DNA from: Bacteroidota bacterium
GTDB taxonomy: Bacteria > Bacteroidota > Bacteroidia > Bacteroidales > UBA7960
NCBI GenBank assembly: GCA_018335675.1
Contig: JAGXRQ010000129.1
Location: 6,253-70,252 of the forward strand
Length of the DNA: 64,000 nt
Reading direction: 5' to 3'
Shown: positions 4,436 through 63,379 of the stretch, one piece after another
How positions within the stretch are numbered: the first letter of the stretch is position 1
How the letters are laid out: each line of letters starts with the position of its first letter
Notes under the pieces: generated by a model
Told to the model about the DNA's origin: nothing
The model's input: only the letters and a program-made list of their open reading frames with translations
Database searches by the model: none
Position numbers and translations under genes: made by a program

Positions 4436-6388
4436 ATGAAAATCAAACTAAGCATTGGTAGAAAACTTAGCCTTGGTTTTACCATTTTGATCGGTTTTTT
4501 CCTTTTTAGTAATATTTTTACTTTCTCGGTATTTAGGGAAAGTCAAAGGATAAACGACCAAAATAGTAATGTTTATGTACCTTCCATGTTATTGCTAATG
4601 GAGTTTAATAACATGATAATTACCAGTGAAAGATTAATTGGAAATTGGATTTTTATTCAAAGTGACATAGATACTCAAGATAAGAATCAACTAAAAGCTA
4701 TTATAGCTCAGGATTATATTGACATTAAAAGCAAACTTGTTAGAATTTCTGAGAATTGGGATTTAGAAATGCAAGAGAAATTGGAAGAAATTTTTAGCGA
4801 TGTTGATTTGCTGTTTGTTACTCACAAATATGTAATGGATGAGTTGGCAGACTGGACAAGCTACGACGATCCAATGATACTTTTCTTTGTACGTCCAATG
4901 ATGGAAGAGGGTGGCGATATTGCAATGATGACAAGAAAAATAACAAATCAACTAGACGAGCTTATAGATATTCAGAATCAAAACGTTGAGCTTGGTTATA
5001 AGCAAATGAATGATTCTTTAGATTCACTAGGAAGGCTTACCATTATATTAACGTTATTGCTAATTATAAGTGGAGCGCTAATAGCTTATTTCTCAATTAA
5101 GAGTATTACAAATCCTGTAAATAAACTTAGAGTTGCATTACAGCTTATGGGCCAGGGTAAAATTCCTGAAACTGCTGTTTATGTCACTAATGATGAGATA
5201 GGGGAAATGGCAAAGGCACTGAATTTCTTAGTCGATGGGTTGAAGGATAAATCTAGTTTCTCTGTTGAGATTGGTCAGGGAAATTTTGCATCAGATTTTA
5301 AACCGCTTAGTGAAGAGGATGATCTAGGACTTGCTCTTTTGGATATGCGCGAAAGTCTTAAAAATGCAAAAGAGGAAGAAAATAAAAGAAGAATCGAAGA
5401 TGACAAAAGATCATGGGCAACACATGGTATTGCTAAATTTGCCGAACTATTAAGGCAAAACAATGATAATATTCAAGAACTTTCTTTTAGCATTATAAAG
5501 AATCTTGTTAAGTATCTTGATGCTAATCAAGGAGGTATCTTTATTGTTAATGATGAAGAAATTGGCGAAAAATCAGTAGATATTAAGGCCTGTTTTGCCT
5601 ATGATAAAAAGAAATTCCTAAAGAAAACCATATATATAGGTGAAGGTCTTGTTGGAACATGCTTGCAAGAGGGAGAATCTATATTCTTAACCGACGTACC
5701 TGATACTTATGTTAATATTACTTCAGGATTAGGAGATTCTAATCCAAGATGTATTCTTATTGTTCCGTTAAAACTTAATGATGAAATATTTGGTGTTATT
5801 GAGATAGCATCATTTAAAATAATGGAATCTTATCAGATTGAATTTGTTGAAAGAATTGCAGAATCTATTGCTGCTACAATTTCAACAGTGAAGATAAATA
5901 TCAGAACAACAGAACTTTTACATCAATCACAGGAACAAAGTGAAGAAATGCGTGCTCAGGAAGAAGAAATGAGACAAAATATGGAAGAAATGCACGCTAC
6001 TCAGGAAGAGATGGAAAGGAAGGAAATCGAAAGCCAAAGCTTTTATGAGGCAATAAATGAGTCTGTGGCTCTGGTTGAAATTAGTATGGATGGAAATGTA
6101 AGACGCGTAAATAAAAAAGTATGTGACATACTATTATTTTCTGAGGGAGAATTGTCAGGCCATTCTCATGTGAAATTCTTTGATAAGTATTTTGTAGAGA
6201 CTTCTACGTACCATCAAATGTGGAGTGATTTAACTAATGGTCAAAAATTTGATGGAACAATTAGCTTAATCAAAAGGAATGGGACTAAGCTTTCTGCTCA
6301 GGTTGCTATACATTCAATTAAGAATAAATACAGAGAGCCTGTTAAAATAATTTTCATTATTCGAGAATATTCTGAGGTACATGCATAA
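4436..6388 (+). CDS. Membrane sensor: TM, helical extracytoplasmic domain, TM, HAMP, GAF, coiled coil, PAS. No output domain recognised.
   Basis: 650 aa. Two hydrophobic helices lie at about residues 10-30 and 200-222. HAMP-like NDEIGEMAKALNFLVDGL. GAF-like YLDANQGGIFI...IFGVIEIASFK. Coiled coil EEMRAQEEEMRQNMEEMHATQEEMERKE. The last ~120 aa are PAS-like. No H-box, ATPase or GGDEF motifs were seen. Confidence 0.8.
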   Translation: MKIKLSIGRKLSLGFTILIGFFLFSNIFTFSVFRESQRINDQNSNVYVPSMLLLMEFNNMIITSERLIGNWIFIQSDIDTQDKNQLKAIIAQDYIDIKSKLVRISENWDLEMQEKLEEIFSDVDLLFVTHKYVMDELADWTSYDDPMILFFVRPMMEEGGDIAMMTRKITNQLDELIDIQNQNVELGYKQMNDSLDSLGRLTIILTLLLIISGALIAYFSIKSITNPVNKLRVALQLMGQGKIPETAVYVTNDEIGEMAKALNFLVDGLKDKSSFSVEIGQGNFASDFKPLSEEDDLGLALLDMRESLKNAKEEENKRRIEDDKRSWATHGIAKFAELLRQNNDNIQELSFSIIKNLVKYLDANQGGIFIVNDEEIGEKSVDIKACFAYDKKKFLKKTIYIGEGLVGTCLQEGESIFLTDVPDTYVNITSGLGDSNPRCILIVPLKLNDEIFGVIEIASFKIMESYQIEFVERIAESIAATISTVKINIRTTELLHQSQEQSEEMRAQEEEMRQNMEEMHATQEEMERKEIESQSFYEAINESVALVEISMDGNVRRVNKKVCDILLFSEGELSGHSHVKFFDKYFVETSTYHQMWSDLTNGQKFDGTISLIKRNGTKLSAQVAIHSIKNKYREPVKIIFIIREYSEVHA

Positions 6389-18307: not shown

Positions 18308-19533
18308 GGATTTCTATAGTCTGCCTTTCTTTTTAAGACATAATGATTATCAGAGTAAGGATGCGACTTTTTAATGAATTCAAACTGTAATTCATTCATT
18401 CTCCAGGTATCTTTATAATGCCAGACTTCAAAACCATCATTTAAGATAACTATATCCGGCGCCCCAAAGATAGTATAAATCATGCCTCGATCTGTTTTCC
18501 AACCTTCTTTATATGAAGTGAAAAATATATTTGATAATTGGACATTGTTATAATAGCGGCTAACCAGACTTCTTGCTCTTACAGGATCTCCTGCAACTCC
18601 TACCCAAAATCTATCTATTGCACCACGCAAATCAGCGCTTTCTGAAACAGCCGAAAACTCAGTATTTGAAACTATATATCTTATAGGATTTAACATTGAT
18701 TGGTAAGATGTTAATTTTGGATATCCATCATGAAAATAAAACAAAGAAAACCCATTGAAAGTTTCATCACCATGAAAAAAACGACAATGACCATTTTTGT
18801 CAATATTTACTATAGCCTCACCATCAATAAATTTAATAATACCAATAGATTTAGTATTAATTTCTTCATCTGTAATGGTTTCTTCTAAAAAAGGTGGTCG
18901 TGCGGGTTTTAAATCTTCACTAATAAGCATTGCATTCATTTGAAAATCTGCTTTACTGTTGTGGTTTAACTTAATTACTGAAGAATTTGCAATGAAATTT
19001 GAAAAAGCCATTTCTCCGCCTGAGTTGTATATTTTGAAGTTTTGTGAGGAGTATGCATGCTGTTTTTTTATCTCATAAATATATGAAAGTTCAGACTTTT
19101 TATTGTGGTCGATAATTTTCAAATGCATTATATAATCGTTTCCGCTCTTGGCTTTAAATACGATGCTGTCTTGTATATACTTACCGGATTCAAAATGAAC
19201 AGAGTCTATTAATAATACAGATGCACTGTCTAAGGGTTTTGTAGAATTATATGAAGTAATAATATTGTAGCTAAGTGTAATTTTTGATTTAAACTTTGCT
19301 TCATCAGGCTTTTTTATGTAATGAAGTTCGTCTGATTTGATCCTGAAATAGAGTATCGATTCTTCATCATTCTGATGATAAATAATTACTTCTGGATTTA
19401 TTTCGGATAATTCCTGCTTATAAATATTCTGGAGGTTAAGATTGCTTACTTTTACTAATGTTCTGCATCCCCAAAGTGTAAAAAGCAGAAATAAAGTCAG
19501 GTTCAAACTATAAAATAATCTTCTATCCTTCAT
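18274..19533 (-). CDS. GWxTD domain-containing protein (secreted)
   Basis: The literal motif GWKTDRGMIYTIFGAPD lies near the C-terminus. The N-terminus has a signal or lipoprotein sequence (LWGC). Confidence 0.75.
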   Translation of the reverse strand: MKDRRLFYSLNLTLFLLFTLWGCRTLVKVSNLNLQNIYKQELSEINPEVIIYHQNDEESILYFRIKSDELHYIKKPDEAKFKSKITLSYNIITSYNSTKPLDSASVLLIDSVHFESGKYIQDSIVFKAKSGNDYIMHLKIIDHNKKSELSYIYEIKKQHAYSSQNFKIYNSGGEMAFSNFIANSSVIKLNHNSKADFQMNAMLISEDLKPARPPFLEETITDEEINTKSIGIIKFIDGEAIVNIDKNGHCRFFHGDETFNGFSLFYFHDGYPKLTSYQSMLNPIRYIVSNTEFSAVSESADLRGAIDRFWVGVAGDPVRARSLVSRYYNNVQLSNIFFTSYKEGWKTDRGMIYTIFGAPDIVILNDGFEVWHYKDTWRMNELQFEFIKKSHPYSDNHYVLKRKADYRNPWYLGIENWRK

Positions 19534-29958: not shown

Positions 29959-32718
29959 TTGCTTACAAGACCGGTTAATAAGTTTTTAGGAGTTTTTTTG
30001 TTTGCTTGCGTCCTGAGTATCCCGTTTTCGTTAGGATTCTCAAAGAATGGAACTGCCAGGCCAGGATTTATTGCAGATTCATTGTTAACAACTTTTCAGG
30101 GATCATATATAGATACCATTCCTTTATTATCTGCGGAAACAGAAATAGACTCAATCATTAATGTTGAATTATCTCCTGAAACTGAGAGGATTACAGGCTC
30201 TGGGGTTATTCTGGAAGATATTGTTATTTATTCTTGCCTGGATTCTATTGATTCTTATTTTACTAGTCAAAAAGTATTTTTGTTTGGCAATGCCGACTTA
30301 AAATATCAGGATATTCATTTAGTTGCTGATTTCATAGAAATTGATTTTGTGAAAAATGAATTGCGGGCTACCGGTTTGCCAGACTCTATGGGTATTGTTA
30401 GGGGCTTGCCTGTATTTAAAGAGGGGGATCAAAGCTTTCAAGCCGAAGAGATTAGGTATAACTTTGAAACTAAGAAGGGCAGAACCCTTAATGTAATAAC
30501 AGAAGAGGCAGATGGCTTTCTTCATGGTGAAGTTGTTAAGATTATGCCTGATAAGATAGTTTATATTGCCGAAGGCAAATTTACAACTTGCGATAAACCT
30601 CATCCTCATTTTCACATAGGATTTAGAAAAGCTAAGGTAATTCCCAAAGATAAAATCGTCACTAGCTTTGCTTTCTTGAAAATTTACGATGTTCCAACAC
30701 CTTTAATAGTCCCTTTTGGATTTTTTCCTAACAGAACAGGTCAAGCCTCCGGTATAATATTACCTTCATACGGAGAATATAGAAATAGAGGCTTCTACCT
30801 TGAAAATGGGGGTTTTTATTGGGGAATTAATGAATATCTTGACCTTTCTTTAAAAGGTAGTATATACTCCAGAGGTGGATGGGGTTTTGATGTAGGAAGC
30901 AGATATAATAAACGATATAAATATAATGGCTCTTTTAGCGTTGCAACTGCAACAACAATAATTGGAGAGGAAAACCTTCCAGGATATGAGAAAAGCAAGG
31001 ATTATAGAGTTATGTGGAGTCATAATCAGGACCCCAAAGCTCGTCCGAATAGTGTATTCCGCGCTAGTGTTAACGCTGGAAGCAGTCAGATGTCGAGATA
31101 TAGCCCAATATCTGATAATGACTATCTGTCAAATACATTTTCATCAAACATTTCTTATTCTGCTACTTGGTCAGGGAAATATAACTTCTCAGCAAACTTA
31201 AGGCATTCTCAAAATACAATTTCAAAAACCGTTGACCTGAGTCTTCCCGAAATTGCATTTAGTGTTAATAGGTTTTATCCTTTAAGAAGAAAAACAGTTG
31301 TTGGTCAGTATAAATGGTATGAAAATATTACAATGAATTACACCTTGAATGCTAGAAATCAGGTTAATACATTAGATTCGCTGCTTTTCAGACAGGAAAC
31401 ATTAAACGAATTTAAAAACGGAATAAGTCATTCAATCCCAATTAGTCATTCAACAAGGGTTTTCAAACATTTTAATTTTAGTAATAGCATAAATTATAAT
31501 GAGAGGTGGTATTTCCAATCAATTGAAAAGAGATGGGATTATGACGATTTGGAAAGTTATTCGGTTGTGAGGGGTGATACTATTTATGGACGTTTAGTTA
31601 CCGACACCATTACTGGATTTAAAGCAGGAAGAGATTTTTATTACAATACATCCTTAAGCACCAAAATATACGGACTTGCCAATTTTAAAAGAAGTGGATT
31701 AAGGGCAATAAGGCATGTTGTATCACCTAGTGTAGGATTCACATATAGGCCGGATTTTTCGACACCCTTTTGGGGCAGTTACAAAACTTTTGACGATCCA
31801 AGGTTTGAACAACCTCAGAAATATTCAATATTCGAACAGGGCATATACGGCTCTCCTCCGGCAAATCAATCGGGGTCTATAAATTTCGCTATTGGTAATA
31901 ATCTGGAAATCAAAGTGAGAAGTAAAAAAGATACTGTTTCCGGTGAAAGAAAAATTGCACTAATTGATAGATTCACCATAGGCTCTTCATACGATTTGGC
32001 TAAAGATTCTGTGAATTTCTCAGACCTTACCATGTCGGGAAGTACAAGATTATTTGGAAATTTTGATATAACTTATGGAAGTAGTTGGACTCCGTATGCT
32101 GTTGATAGCGCTGGAGTTAGTATTAATAAGTTCTTGTGGGAAACGGATAAAAAGCTCTTGCATTTAAAGAATACATCATGGAGCTTAAGCTTCAACTACA
32201 ACTTAAGTTCTGCCGATTTTGGTGGCGCACCATCTGGTAGTCAATCATCAAGAGATAATCAAGGAATTTCTGATCCGGCTTCAAATGATGGCGACACTGA
32301 AAATAGCTCAATGGCTGTAATTCAAACTAGCCCTAATGGGAATTTAAATCAGCATGTAATCGATTACTCAATACCATGGAATCTTAGATTTTCATACAAC
32401 TTCAGATTTGATACCAGGAATTTTATGCATACAGGAGTAACAAACAGGGAGTACATTCAAAGCCTATCATTTTCGGGAGATATAAAATTAACAAGTAAAT
32501 GGAGAATTGGTTTTCAATCAGGATATGATTTTCTAAGAAAAGAACTTACTTACACATCTGTTGATATTTATCGAGATCTTCACTGCTGGGAAATGACATT
32601 TAATTGGATTCCCTTTGGGTTCAGACAAAGCTATAATTTTACTATTAGAGTTAAGGCCGCTGTTTTACAAGACTTAAAACTGTCGAGGAGAACACACCAT
32701 TTGGATAGATATAATTAA
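29959..32718 (+). CDS. Large outer-membrane protein, Bacteroidota LptD-like (putative LPS-assembly protein)
   Basis: 919 aa with a signal sequence. GKFTTCDKPHPHFHIGFRKAKVIP resembles the OstA/LptD region. The long beta-rich C-terminus is typical. TTG start. Confidence 0.65.
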   Translation: MLTRPVNKFLGVFLFACVLSIPFSLGFSKNGTARPGFIADSLLTTFQGSYIDTIPLLSAETEIDSIINVELSPETERITGSGVILEDIVIYSCLDSIDSYFTSQKVFLFGNADLKYQDIHLVADFIEIDFVKNELRATGLPDSMGIVRGLPVFKEGDQSFQAEEIRYNFETKKGRTLNVITEEADGFLHGEVVKIMPDKIVYIAEGKFTTCDKPHPHFHIGFRKAKVIPKDKIVTSFAFLKIYDVPTPLIVPFGFFPNRTGQASGIILPSYGEYRNRGFYLENGGFYWGINEYLDLSLKGSIYSRGGWGFDVGSRYNKRYKYNGSFSVATATTIIGEENLPGYEKSKDYRVMWSHNQDPKARPNSVFRASVNAGSSQMSRYSPISDNDYLSNTFSSNISYSATWSGKYNFSANLRHSQNTISKTVDLSLPEIAFSVNRFYPLRRKTVVGQYKWYENITMNYTLNARNQVNTLDSLLFRQETLNEFKNGISHSIPISHSTRVFKHFNFSNSINYNERWYFQSIEKRWDYDDLESYSVVRGDTIYGRLVTDTITGFKAGRDFYYNTSLSTKIYGLANFKRSGLRAIRHVVSPSVGFTYRPDFSTPFWGSYKTFDDPRFEQPQKYSIFEQGIYGSPPANQSGSINFAIGNNLEIKVRSKKDTVSGERKIALIDRFTIGSSYDLAKDSVNFSDLTMSGSTRLFGNFDITYGSSWTPYAVDSAGVSINKFLWETDKKLLHLKNTSWSLSFNYNLSSADFGGAPSGSQSSRDNQGISDPASNDGDTENSSMAVIQTSPNGNLNQHVIDYSIPWNLRFSYNFRFDTRNFMHTGVTNREYIQSLSFSGDIKLTSKWRIGFQSGYDFLRKELTYTSVDIYRDLHCWEMTFNWIPFGFRQSYNFTIRVKAAVLQDLKLSRRTHHLDRYN

Positions 32719-32760
32719 GTCGGAAGTCGAAAGTTGGAAGTTTTAAGTTTTGAGGGTGAA
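32719..32760. repeat. Degenerate heptamer array (GTCGGAA GTCGAAA GTTGGAA GTTTTAA GTTTTGA GGGTGAA)
   Basis: Six consecutive 7-nt units start on the first base after the stop codon at 32716-32718. Read directly from the sequence. Confidence 0.85.
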
Positions 32761-45856: not shown

Positions 45857-47773
45857 TTAGGAATTTTCATTCCAGGTCAAGACTTGGGTGTCAGGGTTGA
45901 TTATAATCTTCTTACTATCAATTAGATATCGGATAACATTCATTATTTGCAGTTCTTCCTTGCTGCTTTTTGCTGTTTTCATTACTTCGTCTACAGTAAA
46001 AGCTTTGTCCTTTACCATTGGCTTTAGCCATTCTAGAACCTTATCAAACTCAAGATTACTAAGTTCTAATTTATTTCTTTCAAGGCAAACATCACATCTG
46101 CCGCAACGTTTTGCATCTTCTTCTCCGAAATATTCTATCAAGTATTGGCTTCTACATTTACTAATTGATGTAACGTATGCAATCATAGCCTCAGCTCTCA
46201 ATTCTGCAAACTTCTTCCTGTCTGCGTAAACCTGTGGAGATAAAATAAAGTCTCTGGAATCAACTCTGCCTTGACAATATACAATTCTTGGTTTGTTGTT
46301 TTGAGGAGAATATTTTACAATTTTCATATTATCGAGCTGCTTAAGGCTATTAATTATATCATCTTTTCCTAAATTTAGCCTTTTAGCAATAACGCTTTCA
46401 TCAATTTTTATCATATCTGAAAACAATCCCGAATACGACCTCAGTAAGGTTTTTAATATGTTATCGAAAGCGGGTGTTGAAACCTGAAATCTGTAAATAT
46501 CTTCTTTGTTGAGCAAAATCAGAAGCTTTGATGGGTTACTTAAAGCTCCCTCAAGTAATATGTAGCCTTCGCTCTCGAGTAACTTTAAAGCATTGTATGC
46601 TTCAATTGTGTTAAAATTATAATTATTGCAGAATTCAGATAATTCGAAATCAAAAGCAAAATTTTCTCCACTTCCTACAGCTAACTGAAAATAGTTTCCT
46701 AGTGAATTGTAAACTTGCTTTATAAACTTAATTTCAGGGTAAGATGAGCGGATAAATGCTCTTGTATTTGAAATATCAGATTGATCATACAAAAGCACTG
46801 TATAGGCTTTTTTTCCGTCTCTTCCAGCTCTTCCAGCCTCTTGAAAGTATGCTTCCGGACTCTCGGGCATGTCTATATGTACTACAAATCTTACTGTGGG
46901 CTTATCAATACCCATCCCAAAAGCATTTGTTGCAACAATAACAGGAAATTTATCACTCATCCATGCATCTTGTTTGCGACTTCTTGTTATAGCATCCAAA
47001 CCGGCATGATAGTAATCAGACTGAATTCCATTCTTTTTTAAATAAGTTGCTATTTCCTTAGTTCTTTTTCTACTTCTGACATAAACTACACCTGTTCCTT
47101 TAACATTCCTGCATATCTTCAATAATCTTCCCAGCTTATCTTCTTCTTTATATACAACGTAAGCAAGGTTTTTTCTCTCAAATCCTGAACGAAAAACACA
47201 GTGGTTTTTAAACTCAAGTCTTTCAATAATATCTTTTACTACTGATTTTGTTGCAGTTGCAGTTAGAGCTAAAAATGGAACATTAGGTAATAATTCCCTG
47301 ATTTCAGATATTCTTAAATATGGTGGACGAAAGTCGTAACCCCATTGAGATATACAATGCGATTCATCGATAGCAACAAGATTAACATTCATCTTCTGCA
47401 TTCTCACCCTCATAATTTTTGTAACAAGCCTTTCAGGACTTACATACAAAAACTTAATATTTCCGTAAACACAATTATCAAGTATTATATCAATTTCCCT
47501 AGAACTCATGCCTGAATAAACACAAACAGCCTTTATGCCTCTTTGCTTAAGATTTTCGACCTGATCTTTCATAAGTGCAATAAGAGGAGATATCACTATG
47601 CAAAGACCTTCTTTGGCAAGTCCGGGAACCTGATAACATATAGATTTTCCACCTCCTGTTGGCAATAAAGCAAGGGTATCTTTTCCTTCCAATACAGAAT
47701 TTATGATGTCTTCCTGTAATGGTCGGAATTTGGAGTATCCCCAGTATTTAAGTAATATCTGCTTTATTTCCAA
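45857..47773 (-). CDS. recQ: RecQ-family ATP-dependent DNA helicase
   Basis: Walker A LPTGGGKS, DExH box AIDESHCISQWGYDFRP, and the helicase C motif FQEAGRAGRDG. 638 aa. TTG start. Confidence 0.9.
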   Translation of the reverse strand: MEIKQILLKYWGYSKFRPLQEDIINSVLEGKDTLALLPTGGGKSICYQVPGLAKEGLCIVISPLIALMKDQVENLKQRGIKAVCVYSGMSSREIDIILDNCVYGNIKFLYVSPERLVTKIMRVRMQKMNVNLVAIDESHCISQWGYDFRPPYLRISEIRELLPNVPFLALTATATKSVVKDIIERLEFKNHCVFRSGFERKNLAYVVYKEEDKLGRLLKICRNVKGTGVVYVRSRKRTKEIATYLKKNGIQSDYYHAGLDAITRSRKQDAWMSDKFPVIVATNAFGMGIDKPTVRFVVHIDMPESPEAYFQEAGRAGRDGKKAYTVLLYDQSDISNTRAFIRSSYPEIKFIKQVYNSLGNYFQLAVGSGENFAFDFELSEFCNNYNFNTIEAYNALKLLESEGYILLEGALSNPSKLLILLNKEDIYRFQVSTPAFDNILKTLLRSYSGLFSDMIKIDESVIAKRLNLGKDDIINSLKQLDNMKIVKYSPQNNKPRIVYCQGRVDSRDFILSPQVYADRKKFAELRAEAMIAYVTSISKCRSQYLIEYFGEEDAKRCGRCDVCLERNKLELSNLEFDKVLEWLKPMVKDKAFTVDEVMKTAKSSKEELQIMNVIRYLIDSKKIIINPDTQVLTWNENS

Positions 47774-47811: not shown

Positions 47812-47819
47812 TAATTTTG
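47812..47819 (+). promoter_or_regulatory. Candidate -7 element TAATTTTG
   Basis: Matches TAnnTTTG and lies 70 nt upstream of the ATG at 47889. Confidence 0.3.
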
Positions 47820-47888: not shown

Positions 47889-49283
47889 ATGTCAAAAGTA
47901 ATACTTTTTTTCTCTATTTTTTTAATTAGCATTACTGCTCTTTCCCTTGAAAGAGTAGTAAGGGATAATGAAATTCCTATAGAAGAGTTAAATGATATGC
48001 TCTTAAATGCCGTTTATAAAGGTAATTTAGATAGTGTTAAAATATTGTTGCAAAAGGGGGCAAATGCAAATGCAACAGACTTAAGAAATATTTCAGCCTT
48101 AATTTATGCTGTTCAAGGTGGCTATGATTCAATAGTTGAGGTACTTGCGGAAAATGGTGCTGATCTAAATCATAAAGGTTATTTAAGGAGAACGGCTTTG
48201 TTTGAGGCTTCAAGATTTAATTACTTTCATATTGCAGAATATCTTGTTTTAAAGGGTGCCGAAATAAATTCGGGCGATATCTATGGAAATACAGCTTTAT
48301 TTTATGCTGTTGCTAATGCAAATTTCTTTATGGCCGATATGTTAATTTTCTACGGTGCTAATGTAAATCATAAAAATAATAAGCAAGCTTCACCTTTGCA
48401 TATAGCAAGCTGGTATGGACAATTGGAAATTGCAGGATTACTAATTGAGGCCGGAAGCGATGTTGATGCTGCCGACAGACATGGTAATTCTCCCTTAATT
48501 GTTGCTGTGATGTCATACAATATTGATATGGCATGGTATCTTATAGAAAGTGGTGCAGATATAGTATCTCTTAATAATGAATTTCACGACATTTTCTCTA
48601 TTGCAGCCTTTAATAAAGATTATGAGATGTTCGATTTTTTAGCAAGCTATAATGTTAAACCTGAAGATTATCCTCATAAATATAAAAGCCCTGCAGGTAT
48701 ATCATACTTGCGCAACGATAAAGAATTGAAAAGGCTGATTTCAAAGCATAAAGAATTTAAGCCCAAAGGACTGTATATTACTCATTTTGTGTATGAACCG
48801 ACGTTTCATTTTAGTAATAATGAATTTATGGTTGGCGCTCAAGTGGGATTTTTTGAATCTAGATTAGGCTTTAATCTTCTGCTGGGATATGAATCAAGAA
48901 TCGACCATAAAAAAGTTTTGGTAGCAGAAAGTGAAGATTTGTCTTATCAATATTGGGAAAAAAGAAGAATATGGCATTTGGCTTTAAATAAAGAACATTC
49001 ATTTTATCTTGGAAATTTTGTTGCAGGATTTCATTATGGAATAAAAGGCGCCTATACATATGGTTCTTACCGAGGTTCTGAAAATTATCCTGAAAGCAGA
49101 TTTTTGGCAGCTCCATTTGCCGGTGTTTTTATAGGAAATGAGTGGTTTAGAATAAAATCCGAATATGAGTATTTTGATATAAAACAACCTTCTATTCCCA
49201 AAAATAGATATAGTATTGGCGTTTCATTTAAAATACCAATCAGAAGTATTAATTTTACAGAGTCGAATTATTCGGTTTTCTAG
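47889..49283 (+). CDS. Signal-peptide ankyrin-repeat protein fused to a C-terminal predicted beta-barrel domain
   Basis: Signal peptide VILFFSIFLISITALS. There are about 6-7 ANK repeats (G-x-TALxYA..G....v..Ll..GAdvN pattern). The last ~200 aa show alternating aromatic/hydrophobic strands and end in a terminal Phe (NYSVF). Confidence 0.8.
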   Translation: MSKVILFFSIFLISITALSLERVVRDNEIPIEELNDMLLNAVYKGNLDSVKILLQKGANANATDLRNISALIYAVQGGYDSIVEVLAENGADLNHKGYLRRTALFEASRFNYFHIAEYLVLKGAEINSGDIYGNTALFYAVANANFFMADMLIFYGANVNHKNNKQASPLHIASWYGQLEIAGLLIEAGSDVDAADRHGNSPLIVAVMSYNIDMAWYLIESGADIVSLNNEFHDIFSIAAFNKDYEMFDFLASYNVKPEDYPHKYKSPAGISYLRNDKELKRLISKHKEFKPKGLYITHFVYEPTFHFSNNEFMVGAQVGFFESRLGFNLLLGYESRIDHKKVLVAESEDLSYQYWEKRRIWHLALNKEHSFYLGNFVAGFHYGIKGAYTYGSYRGSENYPESRFLAAPFAGVFIGNEWFRIKSEYEYFDIKQPSIPKNRYSIGVSFKIPIRSINFTESNYSVF

Positions 49284-49381
49284 GATTAGGTATCAGGTGT
49301 CGGGTATAGGGTATAGGGTATAGGGTATAGGGTATAGGGTATAGGGTATAGGGTATAGGGTATAGGGTATAGGGTATAGGG
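49284..49381 (+). repeat. Heptamer tandem array: GATTAGG TATCAGG TGTCGGG followed by 11 perfect TATAGGG units
   Basis: Counted base by base. The perfect units start at 49305, 49312 and so on up to 49375. The array begins on the base after the stop codon at 49281-49283. Confidence 0.97.
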
Positions 49382-49383
49382 TG

Positions 49384-49426
49384 TTTTAACTTTTAACTTT
49401 TAACTTTCAACTTTTAACTTTTCAAC
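49384..49426 (+). repeat. Heptamer tandem array TTTTAAC x3, TTTCAAC, TTTTAAC, TTTTCAAC
   Basis: Counted base by base. The array ends on the base before the ATG at 49427. Confidence 0.95.
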
Positions 49427-50179
49427 ATGGCATTAATAGAAGAATTTGAAAAACAAGGAAATTGGTTATTTAGATACAGGGGTTATCTGCCACTTATAAT
49501 TCTAATAGCAGGAGGTATTGTGTTTGCATATACTGAGCTTTATCCCGAAAGCTTTTATATAAAAACTTCACCTTACAGAAATTATTTCGAATGGTTTTGT
49601 ATTGCCGTTAGCATATATGGGTTGTTAGTGCGCATATATACGGTAGGGCATACTCCGAAAAATACTTCCGGGAGAAATGTTAAAGGACAAATCGCTGATA
49701 CATTAAATACAAGCGGTATTTATTCAGTTGTTAGGCATCCTTTATATTTCGGCAATTTTTTTATGTGGCTTGGCCCGGCATTACTTATCGGACATCCATG
49801 GTTTGTTGTAGTTTTTTGCTTTTTCTATTGGGTTTATTATGAAAGAATTATGTTTGCGGAAGAGCAGTTTTTAAGAGGTAAGTTTGGGGAAACATATACT
49901 GATTGGGCGAAAAATGTGCCTGCATTTATTCCTGCTTTTAGAAAGTTTAAAAAACCCAATATGGCATTTAATTATAAAAAGGTTATTAGAAAAGAAAAAA
50001 ATGGTCTTGTTGCGGTTTTTTTAATATTCTCAGCATTCAATTTTGCCGGGCAACATATTGGAGAGCAGGAGGGATATAATCTACCTTTATTATATACTGC
50101 CGCGGCAGTTGTAGTTTTGTACATTGGTATTAGAATTATTCAAAAATTATCAAGTGTTTTGAATGAAAAGACTAATTAA
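49427..50179 (+). CDS. ICMT/PEMT-family membrane methyltransferase
   Basis: 250 aa and polytopic. SGIYSVVRHPLYFGNFFMWLG and YERIMFAEEQFL are the isoprenylcysteine carboxyl methyltransferase-like signature. Confidence 0.75.
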   Translation: MALIEEFEKQGNWLFRYRGYLPLIILIAGGIVFAYTELYPESFYIKTSPYRNYFEWFCIAVSIYGLLVRIYTVGHTPKNTSGRNVKGQIADTLNTSGIYSVVRHPLYFGNFFMWLGPALLIGHPWFVVVFCFFYWVYYERIMFAEEQFLRGKFGETYTDWAKNVPAFIPAFRKFKKPNMAFNYKKVIRKEKNGLVAVFLIFSAFNFAGQHIGEQEGYNLPLLYTAAAVVVLYIGIRIIQKLSSVLNEKTN

Positions 50180-50606
50180 GAATTCATATATTAAATTATT
50201 TTTCCTGGGGGTTTTCTTTTTGGTATGTTCTGGCTGTACTGAAAAAGTAGACAAGTTTGAAAATTGCACTGATGCCGATTATGATAATTGTAATACTGAT
50301 GAGCCTTTGGTCGGTGCAGTTGTTGTATATGTCACAATTAATGATATTCACAACAACGTAATAGTTATCATAAAAGAAGGTCTTTATGAATCAGGTGAGA
50401 TAGTATTGACTGACACATTGCAGCAAAATTCAAAAACATATAATTTCGATATTAATACAACCTATTCTGCAGCCGCATTTTATAAAAATGATAATGATTC
50501 AGTTATCGCAATAGATGGTGGAAAACTTGAATACTATACATACAAGGCCTGTGAACTGACTTGCTATGAAGTAAAGAATTTAAAGATCGACCTTAGACTT
50601 AAGTAA
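50163..50606 (+). CDS. Lipoprotein, function unknown
   Basis: Lipobox LVCSGC. 147 aa. Overlaps the preceding gene by 17 nt. Confidence 0.55.
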   Translation: MKRLIKNSYIKLFFLGVFFLVCSGCTEKVDKFENCTDADYDNCNTDEPLVGAVVVYVTINDIHNNVIVIIKEGLYESGEIVLTDTLQQNSKTYNFDINTTYSAAAFYKNDNDSVIAIDGGKLEYYTYKACELTCYEVKNLKIDLRLK

Positions 50607-50661: not shown

Positions 50662-50669
50662 TATATTTG
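50662..50669 (+). promoter_or_regulatory. Candidate -7 element TATATTTG
   Basis: Matches TAnnTTTG and lies 53 nt upstream of the ATG at 50722. Confidence 0.3.
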
Positions 50670-54076: not shown

Positions 54077-54084
54077 CAAATATA
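54077..54084 (-). promoter_or_regulatory. Candidate -7 element TATATTTG for feoAB
   Basis: The plus strand reads CAAATATA. It lies 46 nt upstream of the feoAB ATG at 54031. Confidence 0.3.
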
Positions 54085-54142: not shown

Positions 54143-54197
54143 GGGGAATAGGGTATAGGGGTATAGGGGTATAAGGTATAAGGTATAAGGAAGTCGG
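54143..54197 (+). repeat. G-rich 7-8-nt tandem array (GGGGAAT AGGGTAT AGGGGTAT AGGGGTAT AAGGTAT AAGGTAT AAGG AAGTCGG)
   Basis: Read directly. The array belongs to the same GGGTAT(A) family as 49305-49381 and is on the same strand. Confidence 0.9.
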
Positions 54198-54240
54198 CAT
54201 CAGACCCGGGGGGTAAGATTGTGATGATAAAACTTGAGAC

Positions 54241-54289
54241 TGTCATCTGTCGACTATTGACTATTGACTATCGACTTACGACTGCCGAC
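54241..54289 (+). repeat. Degenerate heptamer array TGTCATC TGTCGAC TATTGAC TATTGAC TATCGAC TTACGAC TGCCGAC
   Basis: Seven consecutive 7-nt units, each ending in AC or TC, counted base by base. Confidence 0.9.
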
Positions 54290-54395
54290 TTATATAGAAT
54301 TAAACAATCAACGCATCTTATAATGACTATCAAGAAATTAAGGAAATCAAAGATTCAATGATTTATAAATTTAGAGAAAGCAGAGTTTTTTTGTA

Positions 54396-54403
54396 TAATT
54401 TTG
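54396..54403 (+). promoter_or_regulatory. Candidate -7 element TAATTTTG for dxs
   Basis: Matches TAnnTTTG and lies 26 nt upstream of the dxs TTG start at 54429. Confidence 0.4.
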
Positions 54404-61189: not shown

Positions 61190-63379
61190 ATGGAAAACAA
61201 AGAAAAACTTAACCCTGCAATTGAAATTAATACAGATATTCAAACAGAGGATAAGAGCACTGATCCGGCCACTAAAGCCGGTGAGACAAAGAAGAGAGTA
61301 GTAAAGGCTAAAGCAGTAAAGGCTGAAACTGAAGAAAAAAAGAAGAAGGTTGCAAAGCCAAAAGCAGTTAAGTCTGAAACAGAGGAAAAAAAGAAGAAAG
61401 CTGCTAAGCCAAAAGTAGTTAAAGCTGAACCTGAGGATAAAAAGGAAAAGCCTAAAAAGACTACTAAAAAGACACAACCAGAGAAAGAAATTGAAGTAAC
61501 TGACGCAGTAGATGAAAAATCTGTTTCTACAGAAAGCGTAGTAGAGACTACTGTTGTTGCTGAAAAACCAAAGAAAGCTGTTTCTAAAACTGAAAAACCC
61601 AAATCAGATGATTCAGAAAACCAAGAAGAGGAAGAAGATATTAATCTGAAATACGATGGTTACACAAAAGAACAGTTGGTTGAAGTTGTTGAAGCTCTCG
61701 TTCAGCATGAAGATGTTAACCATATAAGAAAATACATTGGTGCTATAAAAGTTGCATTCAGAAAGCTCGTTAAGAGTGAAAGTCTATCATCTCTTGAGAA
61801 AAACTTTTCTGATGGCAGTGAAGAGCATGATACTAATGAAGAAAATGAGGAGGTTACAGTATCAACTGATCCTCTTGTAGAAAGATTTGATAAGTCTTTT
61901 TCAATTTATAAGGAAAAGAAAAATGCATATGATGTTGCATTTGAAAAGCAAAAGACAGATAACCTCAAAGAAAAAGAGTCAATTCTTGAAGAACTTAGAA
62001 ATCTTGTAGATTCAGAAGAAGAGCTTAAGAAAACATACGACCAGTTTAAAAACCTTCAGGAAAGGTGGAAAGAAATTGGTCCTGTTCCGCAAAATGCAAA
62101 AAGCACATTATGGAACAACTTTAATTTTCTTGTCGAGAAATTCTTTGATAAAGTTAAAATTAATAAAGAGCTTAAAGATCTTGACCTTAAAAAGAATCTT
62201 GAAGCAAAAACTGAACTTTGCGAAAAAGCTGAAGAATTGTTTTTGGAGCCTTCAATTACAAAATCATTCCAGCAATTACAGAAACTACATGAAGCTTGGA
62301 AAGAAATAGGCCCAGTCTCAAAAGACATGAAAGATATTCTTTGGGAAAGGTTTAAAACTGCCAGTGATAAACTAAATCAACGTAGGCAAGATTTTTATGA
62401 TGGGTTAAGAGATGAGCAAAAGAAGAATTATTCCGCAAAACTTGTTCTTTGTGAAAAAGCTGAACAAATAGTTGAACTTCAACCTGATAACGTACGTGAC
62501 TGGAAAGAAAACACCGACCAGATAAATGAGCTTTTCAAAGTTTGGAAAACTATTGGGTATGCACCTAAAAAGGTAAATAATGAAATATGGAACCGTTTTA
62601 TAGCGGCAATAGATAAATTCTTTAAGAACAAAAAGAATTTCTTTAAACAATTTAAAGATCAACTTACTGAAAACTATAACCAGAAATTGAATCTTTGCAT
62701 TCAGGCAGAAGCAATTAAGGATAGTGAAGATTGGAAGCAAACAACAGATCAGCTTATTGCATTACAACAAGAATGGAAGAAGATAGGCCCAACTCCAAAT
62801 AAGTATTCCGATAAAGTTTGGAAAAGGTTTAGAGAAGCATGTGATCATTTCTTTAACAGAAAATCTGAATATTTCTCAAATATTGGTGAAAAGCAATCTG
62901 AAAATCTGAAAAAGAAACTTGAACTTATTGAAAAAGTTAAGAATTTTGAATATACAGATGACAATAATCAGAACCTTAAAACATTAAACGAATTTCAACG
63001 TGAATGGATGAATATAGGTCATGTGCCTATCAAGCAGAAAGAAAAGATTCAAAAGGAATTTAAGAAGATTATTGACGAGCTGTTTGAAAAATTAAAGATT
63101 AGCCAAAGGTCGCAAAAAGCATATTCTTTTAAATCAAAAATTGAGAATTTAAAAAATGCTCCAAATGCGGATAATATTATTTACAAAGAAAAGTCGTTCC
63201 TAGTAAATAAAATCAACGGACTTAATAATGACATTAAAGTTTGGGAAAATAATATTGGATTTTTTGCGTCTTCAAAGAAAGCTGATGTTTTAAAGGCTGA
63301 ATTTGAACAAAAAATTAAAAGAGCTAAAGAAGAGATTAAAGTAATAGAGGAGAAATTAAAAATCCTTCAAAGTATGTAA
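61190..63379 (+). CDS. DUF349 repeat protein with a Lys/Glu/Pro-rich repetitive N-terminal region
   Basis: At least five repeats of the W-x-x-F....F motif occur after K(E/D)..W(K/M).IGP(V/T). Examples are WKEIGPVPQN..LWNNFNFLVEKFF, WKEIGPVSKD..LWERFK, WKKIGPTPNK..VWKRFREACDHFF and WMNIGHVP. The N-terminus has 17-aa tandem repeats KAVKxETEEKKKKxAKP. Confidence 0.85.
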   Translation: MENKEKLNPAIEINTDIQTEDKSTDPATKAGETKKRVVKAKAVKAETEEKKKKVAKPKAVKSETEEKKKKAAKPKVVKAEPEDKKEKPKKTTKKTQPEKEIEVTDAVDEKSVSTESVVETTVVAEKPKKAVSKTEKPKSDDSENQEEEEDINLKYDGYTKEQLVEVVEALVQHEDVNHIRKYIGAIKVAFRKLVKSESLSSLEKNFSDGSEEHDTNEENEEVTVSTDPLVERFDKSFSIYKEKKNAYDVAFEKQKTDNLKEKESILEELRNLVDSEEELKKTYDQFKNLQERWKEIGPVPQNAKSTLWNNFNFLVEKFFDKVKINKELKDLDLKKNLEAKTELCEKAEELFLEPSITKSFQQLQKLHEAWKEIGPVSKDMKDILWERFKTASDKLNQRRQDFYDGLRDEQKKNYSAKLVLCEKAEQIVELQPDNVRDWKENTDQINELFKVWKTIGYAPKKVNNEIWNRFIAAIDKFFKNKKNFFKQFKDQLTENYNQKLNLCIQAEAIKDSEDWKQTTDQLIALQQEWKKIGPTPNKYSDKVWKRFREACDHFFNRKSEYFSNIGEKQSENLKKKLELIEKVKNFEYTDDNNQNLKTLNEFQREWMNIGHVPIKQKEKIQKEFKKIIDELFEKLKISQRSQKAYSFKSKIENLKNAPNADNIIYKEKSFLVNKINGLNNDIKVWENNIGFFASSKKADVLKAEFEQKIKRAKEEIKVIEEKLKILQSM

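Follow-up and report, generated by a model that had tools for sequence, protein, structure and literature searches.

Tandem heptanucleotides form the most abundant class of long simple sequence repeats (SSRs) in prokaryotes and probably originate from polymerase slippage, according to Mrazek (2007) as relayed in later studies (in PMC4679880, PMC4692102). G-rich heptamers of the types GGGAATC (GGGNATC) in Xanthomonas and GGGGAYT in Nostoc make up arrays of 2–26 units that are mostly intergenic, fold into G-quadruplexes (G4s) in vitro, are transcribed, and lie within 50 bp past stop codons on the coding strand, singly or, in Xanthomonas, as convergent G/C pairs, and they are under-represented between divergent genes (Rehm, 2015; PMC4692102). 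Their length is variable among related genomes at sites that are kept, they show no link to surface or virulence genes, and no function or regulatory role has been demonstrated for them (PMC4692102). TAACTGA direct repeats occur upstream of start codons in Beggiatoaceae, Cyanobacteria and five Bacteroidetes, where a role in translation initiation has been proposed; the same study recorded intergenic regions with several different heptamer arrays in Gramella, Aequorivita and Elizabethkingia, and strain indels in 7-nt steps (MacGregor, 2015; PMC4679880). In hmw1A of Haemophilus influenzae, the (ATCTTTC)n repeat of the 5′ untranslated region (5′-UTR) pairs with a G-rich arm to form a long hairpin that RNase III cleaves, and expression follows the heptamer copy number, which changes in 7-nt steps (PMC12721329). 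The copy number of TTTTGAT heptads likewise sets expression from PctxAB of Vibrio cholerae (bioRxiv 10.1101/2021.05.14.444153), and TTTTGAA heptads lie near start codons in the recF/recO upstream regions of Nostoc (bioRxiv 10.1101/2022.06.06.494920). Here we analyze a 143-nt spacer (49284–49426) in a stretch of 64,000 nt (32.8% G+C; hereafter the window) from the Bacteroidales contig JAGXRQ010000129.1, which separates a gene for an ankyrin-repeat protein (ank) from a gene for a membrane methyltransferase of the ICMT/PEMT family (the ICMT gene) and is built of a G-rich heptamer array (G-array) followed by a T-rich one (T-array). On balance, the evidence favors regarding this spacer as a pair of slippage-generated heptanucleotide SSRs inside an ank–ICMT–ORF147 transcription unit of an uncultured Bacteroidales bacterium. 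Comparison loci are designated by L numbers (L120, L122, etc.).

The spacer extends from the TAG stop codon of ank (49281–49283) to the ATG of the ICMT gene, and its parts are listed in Table 1. A sequence-only reading of this region had described it as consisting essentially of heptamers, which was borne out by the sequence and by Tandem Repeats Finder (TRF). TRF reported a period of 7 with 11.6 copies, 100% matches and a score of 162 for the perfect G-rich core, and a period of 7 with 5.6 copies and 93% matches for 49384–49422, the two arrays being joined by a TG dinucleotide. A two-unit probe of the G-array (GGGTATAGGGTATA, up to two mismatches) matched the window 15 times where 0.19 matches were expected, a count that none of 100 shuffles reached. 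With the same tolerance, a 14-mer of the T-array gave eight matches in the window against 4.9 expected, five of the eight being inside the array, and taken alone the T-array is less exceptional relative to chance than the G-array. When exact arrays with periods of 4–12 were tested across the window, only period 7 was recovered, save for a 12-nt ATTC x3 at 18390–18401. Judged by TRF and the shuffle test, the arrays have what defines prokaryotic long SSRs, namely head-to-tail units of 5–11 nt repeated for longer than chance allows. The exact tandem string GGGTATAGGGTATA found no match in the searchable literature. That the spacer might be coding sequence was rejected, because the G-array carries TAG in all three plus-strand frames, both arrays are closed in every plus-strand frame, and the minus strand is closed by TAA within the T-array. 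The list of open reading frames (ORFs) has no entry of 50 aa or more inside the spacer, the nearest minus-strand ORFs stop at 49116 and 49187, and an Rfam scan at gathering thresholds together with a tRNA scan returned nothing in the whole window.

The history of the spacer was read from its closest relative, L120, which belongs to the metagenome-assembled genome (MAG) GCA_964601515.1 of an ‘uncultured Bacteroidales bacterium’. L120 keeps the gene order ank–ICMT–ORF147, and its ICMT gene is 84% identical in amino acids and 79.5% in nucleotides, with 57.8% of the third codon positions identical. The orthologous spacer has 90 nt and consists of the units GATTAGG, TGTCGGG, TATCAGG, TATCAGG and TATAGAA, after which (TTTAACT)x7.1 extends to the ATG; its left tract, which can also be described as (AGGTATC)x3.9, is made of degenerate units ending in RGG and is missing the perfect G-rich core. 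The T-array is identical to the (TTTAACT)x7.1 of L120 at 36 of 43 positions, and the left degenerate units are identical at 17 of 21, compared with the 57.8% at ICMT third codon positions. The two-array layout therefore predates the split of the window genome and L120, with the degenerate units at 49284–49304 as the older portion of the G-rich tract, and the perfect (GGGTATA)11.6 core is a lineage-specific expansion of one unit type from this older RGG-ending tract. The earlier suggestion that a degenerate flank beside a perfect core marks a recent expansion is thereby supported, as the relative keeps the RGG units and the TTTTAAC array without (TATAGGG)11. Whole-unit length change between related genomes is evident from the unit numbers and from the spacer lengths (90 versus 143 nt), and since the net difference of 53 nt is not a multiple of 7, other indels must have occurred too. 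Among orthologs of no more than 74% identity, the upstream genes are different and heptamers are absent. Many of these distant orthologs have an ordinary promoter, as in L122, where an own TAATTTTG box lies 46 nt before the ATG. A metagenome scan with the ICMT protein found nothing above 64% identity, the window contig was not among the matches, and the upstream regions of the matches carried no heptamers. As a side observation on L120, its ankyrin ortholog as called (494 aa; 1681–1770) probably starts 30 codons early, the alignment and the conserved promoter placing the start at the methionine of MSKVILFFS.

To place the spacer in its transcription unit, promoter motifs were sought across the window. 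Bacteroidetes promoters have a −7 box of the form TAnnTTTG, and a custom scan for it detected a canonical box upstream of ank (Table 1); of the 137 nt around this box, 117 are identical in L120, including the whole promoter core, and the box is likely the promoter of the ank–ICMT–ORF147 transcription unit. Such boxes also precede ORF172 (50662–50669), feoB (54077–54084, minus strand) and dxs (54396–54403, plus strand), and TAnnTTTG is present in 21 of the window's 31 upstream gaps that are 60 nt or longer, with about 0.13 expected by chance per 143 nt. The ank–ICMT spacer contained none, merely TAACTTT(T/C) near-matches without the final G, and a scan for sigma-70-like promoters and intrinsic terminators likewise found none in the spacer, with counts equal to those of shuffles. 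The earlier statement that the spacer leaves no room for a conventional promoter is in line with these results. No purine-rich Shine–Dalgarno sequence is present in the last 20 nt before the ICMT ATG. Because the spacer has no −7 box, unlike 21 of the 31 gaps, the ICMT gene is probably co-transcribed with ank. One transcript covering ank, ICMT and ORF147, with the spacer as intercistronic RNA, would be the most economical reading, and ORF147 is probably its last gene.

The near-matches raise the alternative that a non-canonical promoter resides in the TTTTAAC array itself and yields an ICMT transcript with a short leader or none, with the G-array as an upstream element. Overlapping TAACTTT(T/C) motifs at 49387, 49394, 49401 and 49415 agree with the consensus at seven of eight positions, the array is conserved in the relative, and distant ICMT orthologs have their own promoter at a similar distance. 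We nevertheless consider this improbable, given that the consensus G is in none of the motifs, that no −33 TTTG lies at the right distance, that the full consensus is what the 21 promoter-bearing gaps of the window use, and that the gene order and the spacer are kept in the relative, consistent with one operon.

The structural potential of the spacer was then assessed by folding. The G-array offers 12 in-phase GGG tracts with 4-nt loops, well above the four units needed for G4 competence, and canonical G3N1-7 x4 motifs occur in the 64 kb only in this array and in another heptamer array at 54143–54169. For the G-array alone, the ViennaRNA energy went from −8.0 to −25.6 kcal/mol when G4 energies were included, with three tandem three-layer G4s predicted, and the G4 potential asserted in the sequence-only reading is in this sense real on paper. 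Without G4 energies, RNAfold paired the two arrays in a periodic helix of −27.8 kcal/mol, which equals the shuffle mean (z = 0.06), and an hmw-like RNA helix between the arrays was rejected since its energy is no better than that of shuffles. An inverted-repeat search and folding at the spacer returned nothing significant; a hairpin or cruciform, here or at the heptamer cluster 54143–54295, was rejected (only a 9–10 nt arm, z = −1.26), so the models leave a hairpin unsupported. In the L120 spacer, GGG occurs once and folding with G4 energies predicts no G4, which means that G4 capacity is not conserved at the locus.

The sequence-only reading had also suggested a search for the repeat in other genomes, and an exact (GGGTATA)3 scan of one genome per species gave at least 116 stretches from very diverse genomes. 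Among the matches listed, to which the following figures refer, arrays of at least three units occur in Bacteroidota (Chitinophagales, Cytophagales, Bacteroidales), Ignavibacteria, Calditrichia, Elusimicrobia, many Patescibacteria, Chloroflexi, Hydrogenedentota, Syntrophaceae, Methylomirabilis and Cyanobacteria, at loci of 29–71% G+C. The number of perfect copies is 3 (66 arrays), 4 (30), 5 (10), 6 (2), 7 (7), 8 (2) or 9 (1); the 11.6 units of the window are the longest, in a comparison where short-read assemblies shorten long arrays. Outside the repeat, none of the 116 listed loci resembles the window. Variant G3N4 units (GGGTGTA, GGGGATA, GGGTTTA, GGGTTCA) usually flank the arrays, and the in-phase GGG tracts have a mode of four, with at least four in 77 of 99 arrays, a distribution shaped by the search threshold of at least three units.

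Over 74 scored loci among these matches, the arrays lie a median of 33 nt from the 5′-side ORF versus 107.5 nt from the 3′-side one; the former value falls to 20.5 nt when the 5′-side ORF is on the G-strand, i.e., when the array stands just past the stop codon, and divergent flanking genes are the least frequent arrangement (10 of 74). Across bacteria, G-rich heptamer arrays usually occupy this post-stop position, and so does the window locus, whose degenerate units start at +1 and whose perfect core starts at +19 relative to the stop codon. In 24–28 of 92 listed loci, the 220 nt downstream contain a complementary C-rich heptamer array; upstream it is found in 1–2 of 92, and in control segments in about 2%. 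Examples of such G-then-C pairs are L005, L006, L011, L019, L037, L111 and L117 (among L004–L119), from many phyla. One could conceive the conserved two-array spacer as a functional intercistronic module, in which a length-variable G4 tract meters transcript or ribosomes to a fixed A/U-rich heptad leader and tunes ICMT against ankyrin in heritable steps, with the G-then-C pairs after stops in many phyla as an unrecognised 3′-end or insulator family; we hold this to be improbable.

Whether GGGTATA is a specially enriched word was examined in viral contigs, which contain 9 stretches of (GGGTATA)3 and 52 of (TTTTAAC)3. Two control heptamers matched in composition, (GGTAGTA)3 and (GAGTGTA)3, were present in 32 and 5 stretches, and a special enrichment of GGGTATA was rejected on these counts; tandem heptamers in general far exceed the chance expectation for a 21-mer. 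The plant-type telomere heptamer GGGTTTA, to which the unit had been likened, stands in tandem beside GGGTATA arrays at L020, L022, L028 and L091. The hosts are bacterial MAGs (Hydrogenedentota, Methylomirabilis, Chisholmbacteria, others), and this looks like ordinary unit drift in G3N4 arrays; the telomere resemblance is incidental. In the MAG that contains L120, a further locus (L079, 1442–1619) carries (TATAGGG)x7.9 and, 38 nt later, a 23-nt tandem repeat, ACCATTTCTGTAACTCTTCTGTC x3.7 (96%), and this composite repeat spacer lies just upstream of a 600-aa ORF. As for abundance in the host, the 64 kb covered here contain two G-rich arrays, and with L079, (GGGTATA)x7.9 in this register, the relative's MAG adds at least one more.

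These data bear on a second alternative, in which the G-array is a functional G4 element, in DNA or mRNA, that stabilises the upstream cistron against 3′–5′ decay, pauses RNA polymerase or ribosomes, or modulates ICMT translation, by analogy with REP-type elements. The 12 in-phase tracts and the gain from −8.0 to −25.6 kcal/mol speak for it, as does the confinement of canonical G4 motifs in the 64 kb to heptamer arrays; among the matches listed, the class sits about 20 nt past stops on the sense strand and most often has four GGG tracts (at least four in 77 of 99), and related heptamers are transcribed and form G4s in vitro (PMC4692102). Against it stand the single GGG in the spacer of the nearest relative, the second array of the window between divergent promoters, where it is probably untranscribed, heptamers of the same composition without G3 that are as common or commoner in viral contigs, and a distribution of tract numbers that the search threshold shaped; nor did Rehm et al. 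find a regulatory role (PMC4692102). That G4 capacity comes and goes in the orthologous pair argues against an obligatory G4 function, and we rate a functional G4 as unlikely, though the most plausible of the alternatives. As a side observation, a RecQ-family helicase gene (45857–47773, minus strand) is divergent from ank, at 1.5 kb from the array with G4 potential. Helicases of this family unwind G4 DNA; the RecQ–ank adjacency is also found in the relative, which has no G4, and is probably a coincidence.

A third alternative, close to the phase variation and changes of promoter geometry that had been envisaged from the sequence, is a contingency locus in which expression of the ICMT operon genes would be tuned or switched as 7-nt units are added or removed, as in hmw1A and ctxAB. 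A long perfect array is highly mutable through slippage, the array length does differ between the window genome and the relative, and heptamer copy number sets expression in hmw (PMC12721329) and ctxAB (bioRxiv 10.1101/2021.05.14.444153). The spacer, however, has no promoter elements whose spacing might shift, and the 43-nt T-array separates the variable array from the ATG. The copy number is the same in the two spanning assemblies, the neighbouring genes are of housekeeping type in a class without surface or virulence association (PMC4692102), and the inter-array pairing (z = 0.06) leaves an hmw-like hairpin unsupported. We regard a contingency locus as very unlikely, and the proposed phase variation found no support.

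The reliability of the array itself was evaluated from independent records. The 143-nt spacer is identical in the ENA contig k141_47774 and a JGI contig, within an identical region of 12.7 kb. The copy number is the same in both of these spanning assemblies, which may derive from the same reads, and for this reason they provide no evidence against heterogeneity. In the k-mer-limited Logan assembly of SRR6212587, contigs end inside the G-array from both sides, a break that is expected for a short-k assembly and carries no copy-number information. Exact-protein look-ups yielded only records identical to the window, plus the Logan contigs ending in the array. The ENA contig name implies a 141-mer, which exceeds the 81-nt perfect core, so that the unit count is probably read-supported, the use of k = 141 being itself deduced from that name. 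An assembly artefact, in the array or in its length, had been named as a caveat in the sequence-only reading. In its favor, assemblers have difficulty with perfect tandem repeats, Logan contigs end within the array on both sides, and the two identical records may share reads. Yet single 141-mers (if k was 141) or reads could span the 81-nt core, two assembly pipelines gave the identical spacer, heptamer arrays occupy the orthologous site of a related genome, and more than 100 other genomes bear the (GGGTATA) repeat, which together make an artefact scarcely credible. In L120 itself, a perfect 9-nt array, (AGGGAAATA)x4.1 at 4479–4515, lies beside an N run (scaffold gap), and repeats seem to break assembly there.

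As for the genes on both sides of the spacer, the ankyrin protein is 78% identical in amino acids to its L120 ortholog. The ICMT protein has 4804 homologs, mostly of 250 aa with 99–100% coverage, which carry the names Bacteroidales, Tenuifilaceae or Salinivirgaceae; since full-length homologs share its length, the start codon at 49427 is confirmed. Elsewhere, the window brings the count of heptamer loci to three, two of them with G-rich arrays. The second G-rich array belongs to a cluster at 54143–54295 in the 397-nt gap between the divergent genes feoB and dxs, a placement unlike the usual one of the class; the cluster also has one AAGTCGG before its CGACTAT/CGACTTA units. Lying between the two canonical −7 boxes of these genes, it is probably not transcribed. 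Complementarity in this gap is limited to a 9-nt arm (54283–54291 with 54191–54199; fold z = −1.26). The third heptamer locus begins at the stop codon of an LptD-family gene (29959–32718; Pfam LptD_2), and its sense-strand, immediately post-stop placement is as at the 143-nt spacer. Other repeats in the window are a 51-nt tandem repeat (61288–61444, 3.1 copies, 82%) in a 729-aa ORF (61190–63379), which encodes a Lys/Ala/Glu-rich repeat, and a CTT/AAG trinucleotide run (2317–2359) within an ORF at 2312–2755.

Table 1. Positions of the ank–ICMT spacer, its flanking genes and the other heptamer loci within the window
Feature	Position	Strand	Basis
Canonical Bacteroidetes −7 box TAATTTTG upstream of ank	47812–47819	+	custom TAnnTTTG scan
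ank, 464 aa, ankyrin repeats and C-terminal region of unknown fold	47889–49283	+	ORF list; Pfam Ank/Ank_2, E ~1e-35
Three degenerate heptamers, GATTAGG TATCAGG TGTCGGG	49284–49304	+	sequence; begin at first base past the ank stop
Perfect core, (GGGTATA)x11.6, equivalently TATAGGG x11 at 49305–49381	49302–49382	+	TRF
T-array: TTTTAAC x3, TTTCAAC, TTTTAAC, 8-nt TTTTCAAC	49384–49426	+	abuts ATG
ICMT/PEMT-family membrane methyltransferase, 250 aa	49427–50179	+	Pfam PEMT/ICMT
ORF147, overlapping the ICMT gene by 17 nt	50163–50606	+	ORF list; same gene order in L120
Third heptamer locus, AAGTCGG AAGTCGA AAGTTGG AAGTTTT AAGTTTT	32715–32749	+	sequence; TRF
Second G-rich heptamer array, GGGGAATA GGGTATA GGGGTATA GGGGTATA AGGTATA x3	54143–54190	+	sequence; TRF; G4 motif
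CGACTAT/CGACTTA heptamer array	54251–54292	+	TRF

We return to the reading favored at the outset, a pair of slippage-generated SSRs inside one transcription unit. The spacer would be transcribed as intercistronic RNA, in which the conserved (UUUUAAC)n would provide an A/U-rich, structure-poor leader without a Shine–Dalgarno sequence, where ribosomes might load for the ICMT gene. Initiation independent of Shine–Dalgarno sequences in Bacteroidota needs a leader of this kind, and MacGregor (2015) proposed such a role for TAACTGA arrays. The G-rich core would be a recent, near-neutral by-product of replication slippage. It could fold into up to three tandem G4s, as DNA or RNA, and the folded core might at most act as a structured 3′-proximal repeat, a barrier protecting or uncoupling the upstream cistron, perhaps incidentally; it would not be a dedicated on/off switch, and nothing found here shows that the spacer acts as a switch. 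Several points weigh against this reading. Co-transcription is deduced solely from the absent promoter and terminator motifs, and 10 of the 31 gaps in the window also have no canonical −7 box; the leader role of the T-array is putative. Conservation of the arrays is weak evidence of selection, for repeat units align trivially, and continuing slippage may homogenise an array without any function. The stop-proximal bias and the G-then-C polarity hint at function or at a directional mechanism, which the neutral account does not explain.

By itself the locus matters little, adding to the G-rich heptamer class a Bacteroidales example with the new unit GGGTATA. Within one orthologous pair, a heptamer scaffold is seen to outlast synonymous-site saturation while unit types expand. 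The survey of more than 100 genomes, with the GGGTATA unit and its post-stop placement recurring across phyla and G+C contents, sharpens the question of why heptamers, and why here. If the arrays were functional, they would represent compact, tunable intercistronic elements for organisms without Shine–Dalgarno-based initiation.

Comparison with the known systems sets some of them apart. The spacer has no significant inverted repeat or fold, in contrast to REP/BIME palindromes. STRR heptamers, with units such as CCCCAGT, are known from heterocystous cyanobacteria; here the host belongs to the Bacteroidales and the unit sequences differ. Phase-variable loci place their repeats in a promoter, a 5′-UTR hairpin or an ORF, whereas this spacer has no promoter motif, a helix at random level, and closed frames. 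With hmw1A it shares a heptamer array adjoining a G-rich segment upstream of a gene; unlike there, the inter-array pairing is at random level (z = 0.06), no variation was seen within the population, and these are not adhesin genes. Like the V. cholerae and Nostoc heptads, the T-array consists of TTTTNNN units in 3–8 tandem copies directly upstream of a coding region, but those heptads lie in or beside mapped promoters and are bound by regulators, or proposed to be, while no promoter was found here.

The likeness to the TAACTGA repeats is closer, as a forward heptamer array ends within a few nucleotides of the start of a gene without a Shine–Dalgarno sequence, and mixed heptamer arrays share one intergenic region. 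Read in the register TAACTTT, the unit has TAACT in common with TAACTGA, agreeing at five of seven positions. It differs at the other two, no genome-wide network is evident, and the array lies in an apparent intercistronic spacer. The descriptive features of the G-rich heptamers of Rehm (2015) are all matched except for unit sequence and host, the G4 and the transcription here being predicted: the unit is GGGTATA and not GGGNATC or GGGGAYT, the host is a Bacteroidales genome of 33% G+C, and an A/T-rich second heptamer array comes next instead of a complementary C-rich one. Both arrays, perfect head-to-tail, non-coding and beyond chance, fit the general class of long SSRs with no difference of substance from Mrazek (2007) as far as that work is relayed in the later studies. 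The sequence-only reading had left room for a novel repeat family, which does not stand, the class being already described (PMC4679880, PMC4692102; Mrazek, 2007, as relayed there). The locus belongs to this described class of slippage-prone bacterial heptamer repeats, as a new member with the unit GGGTATA.

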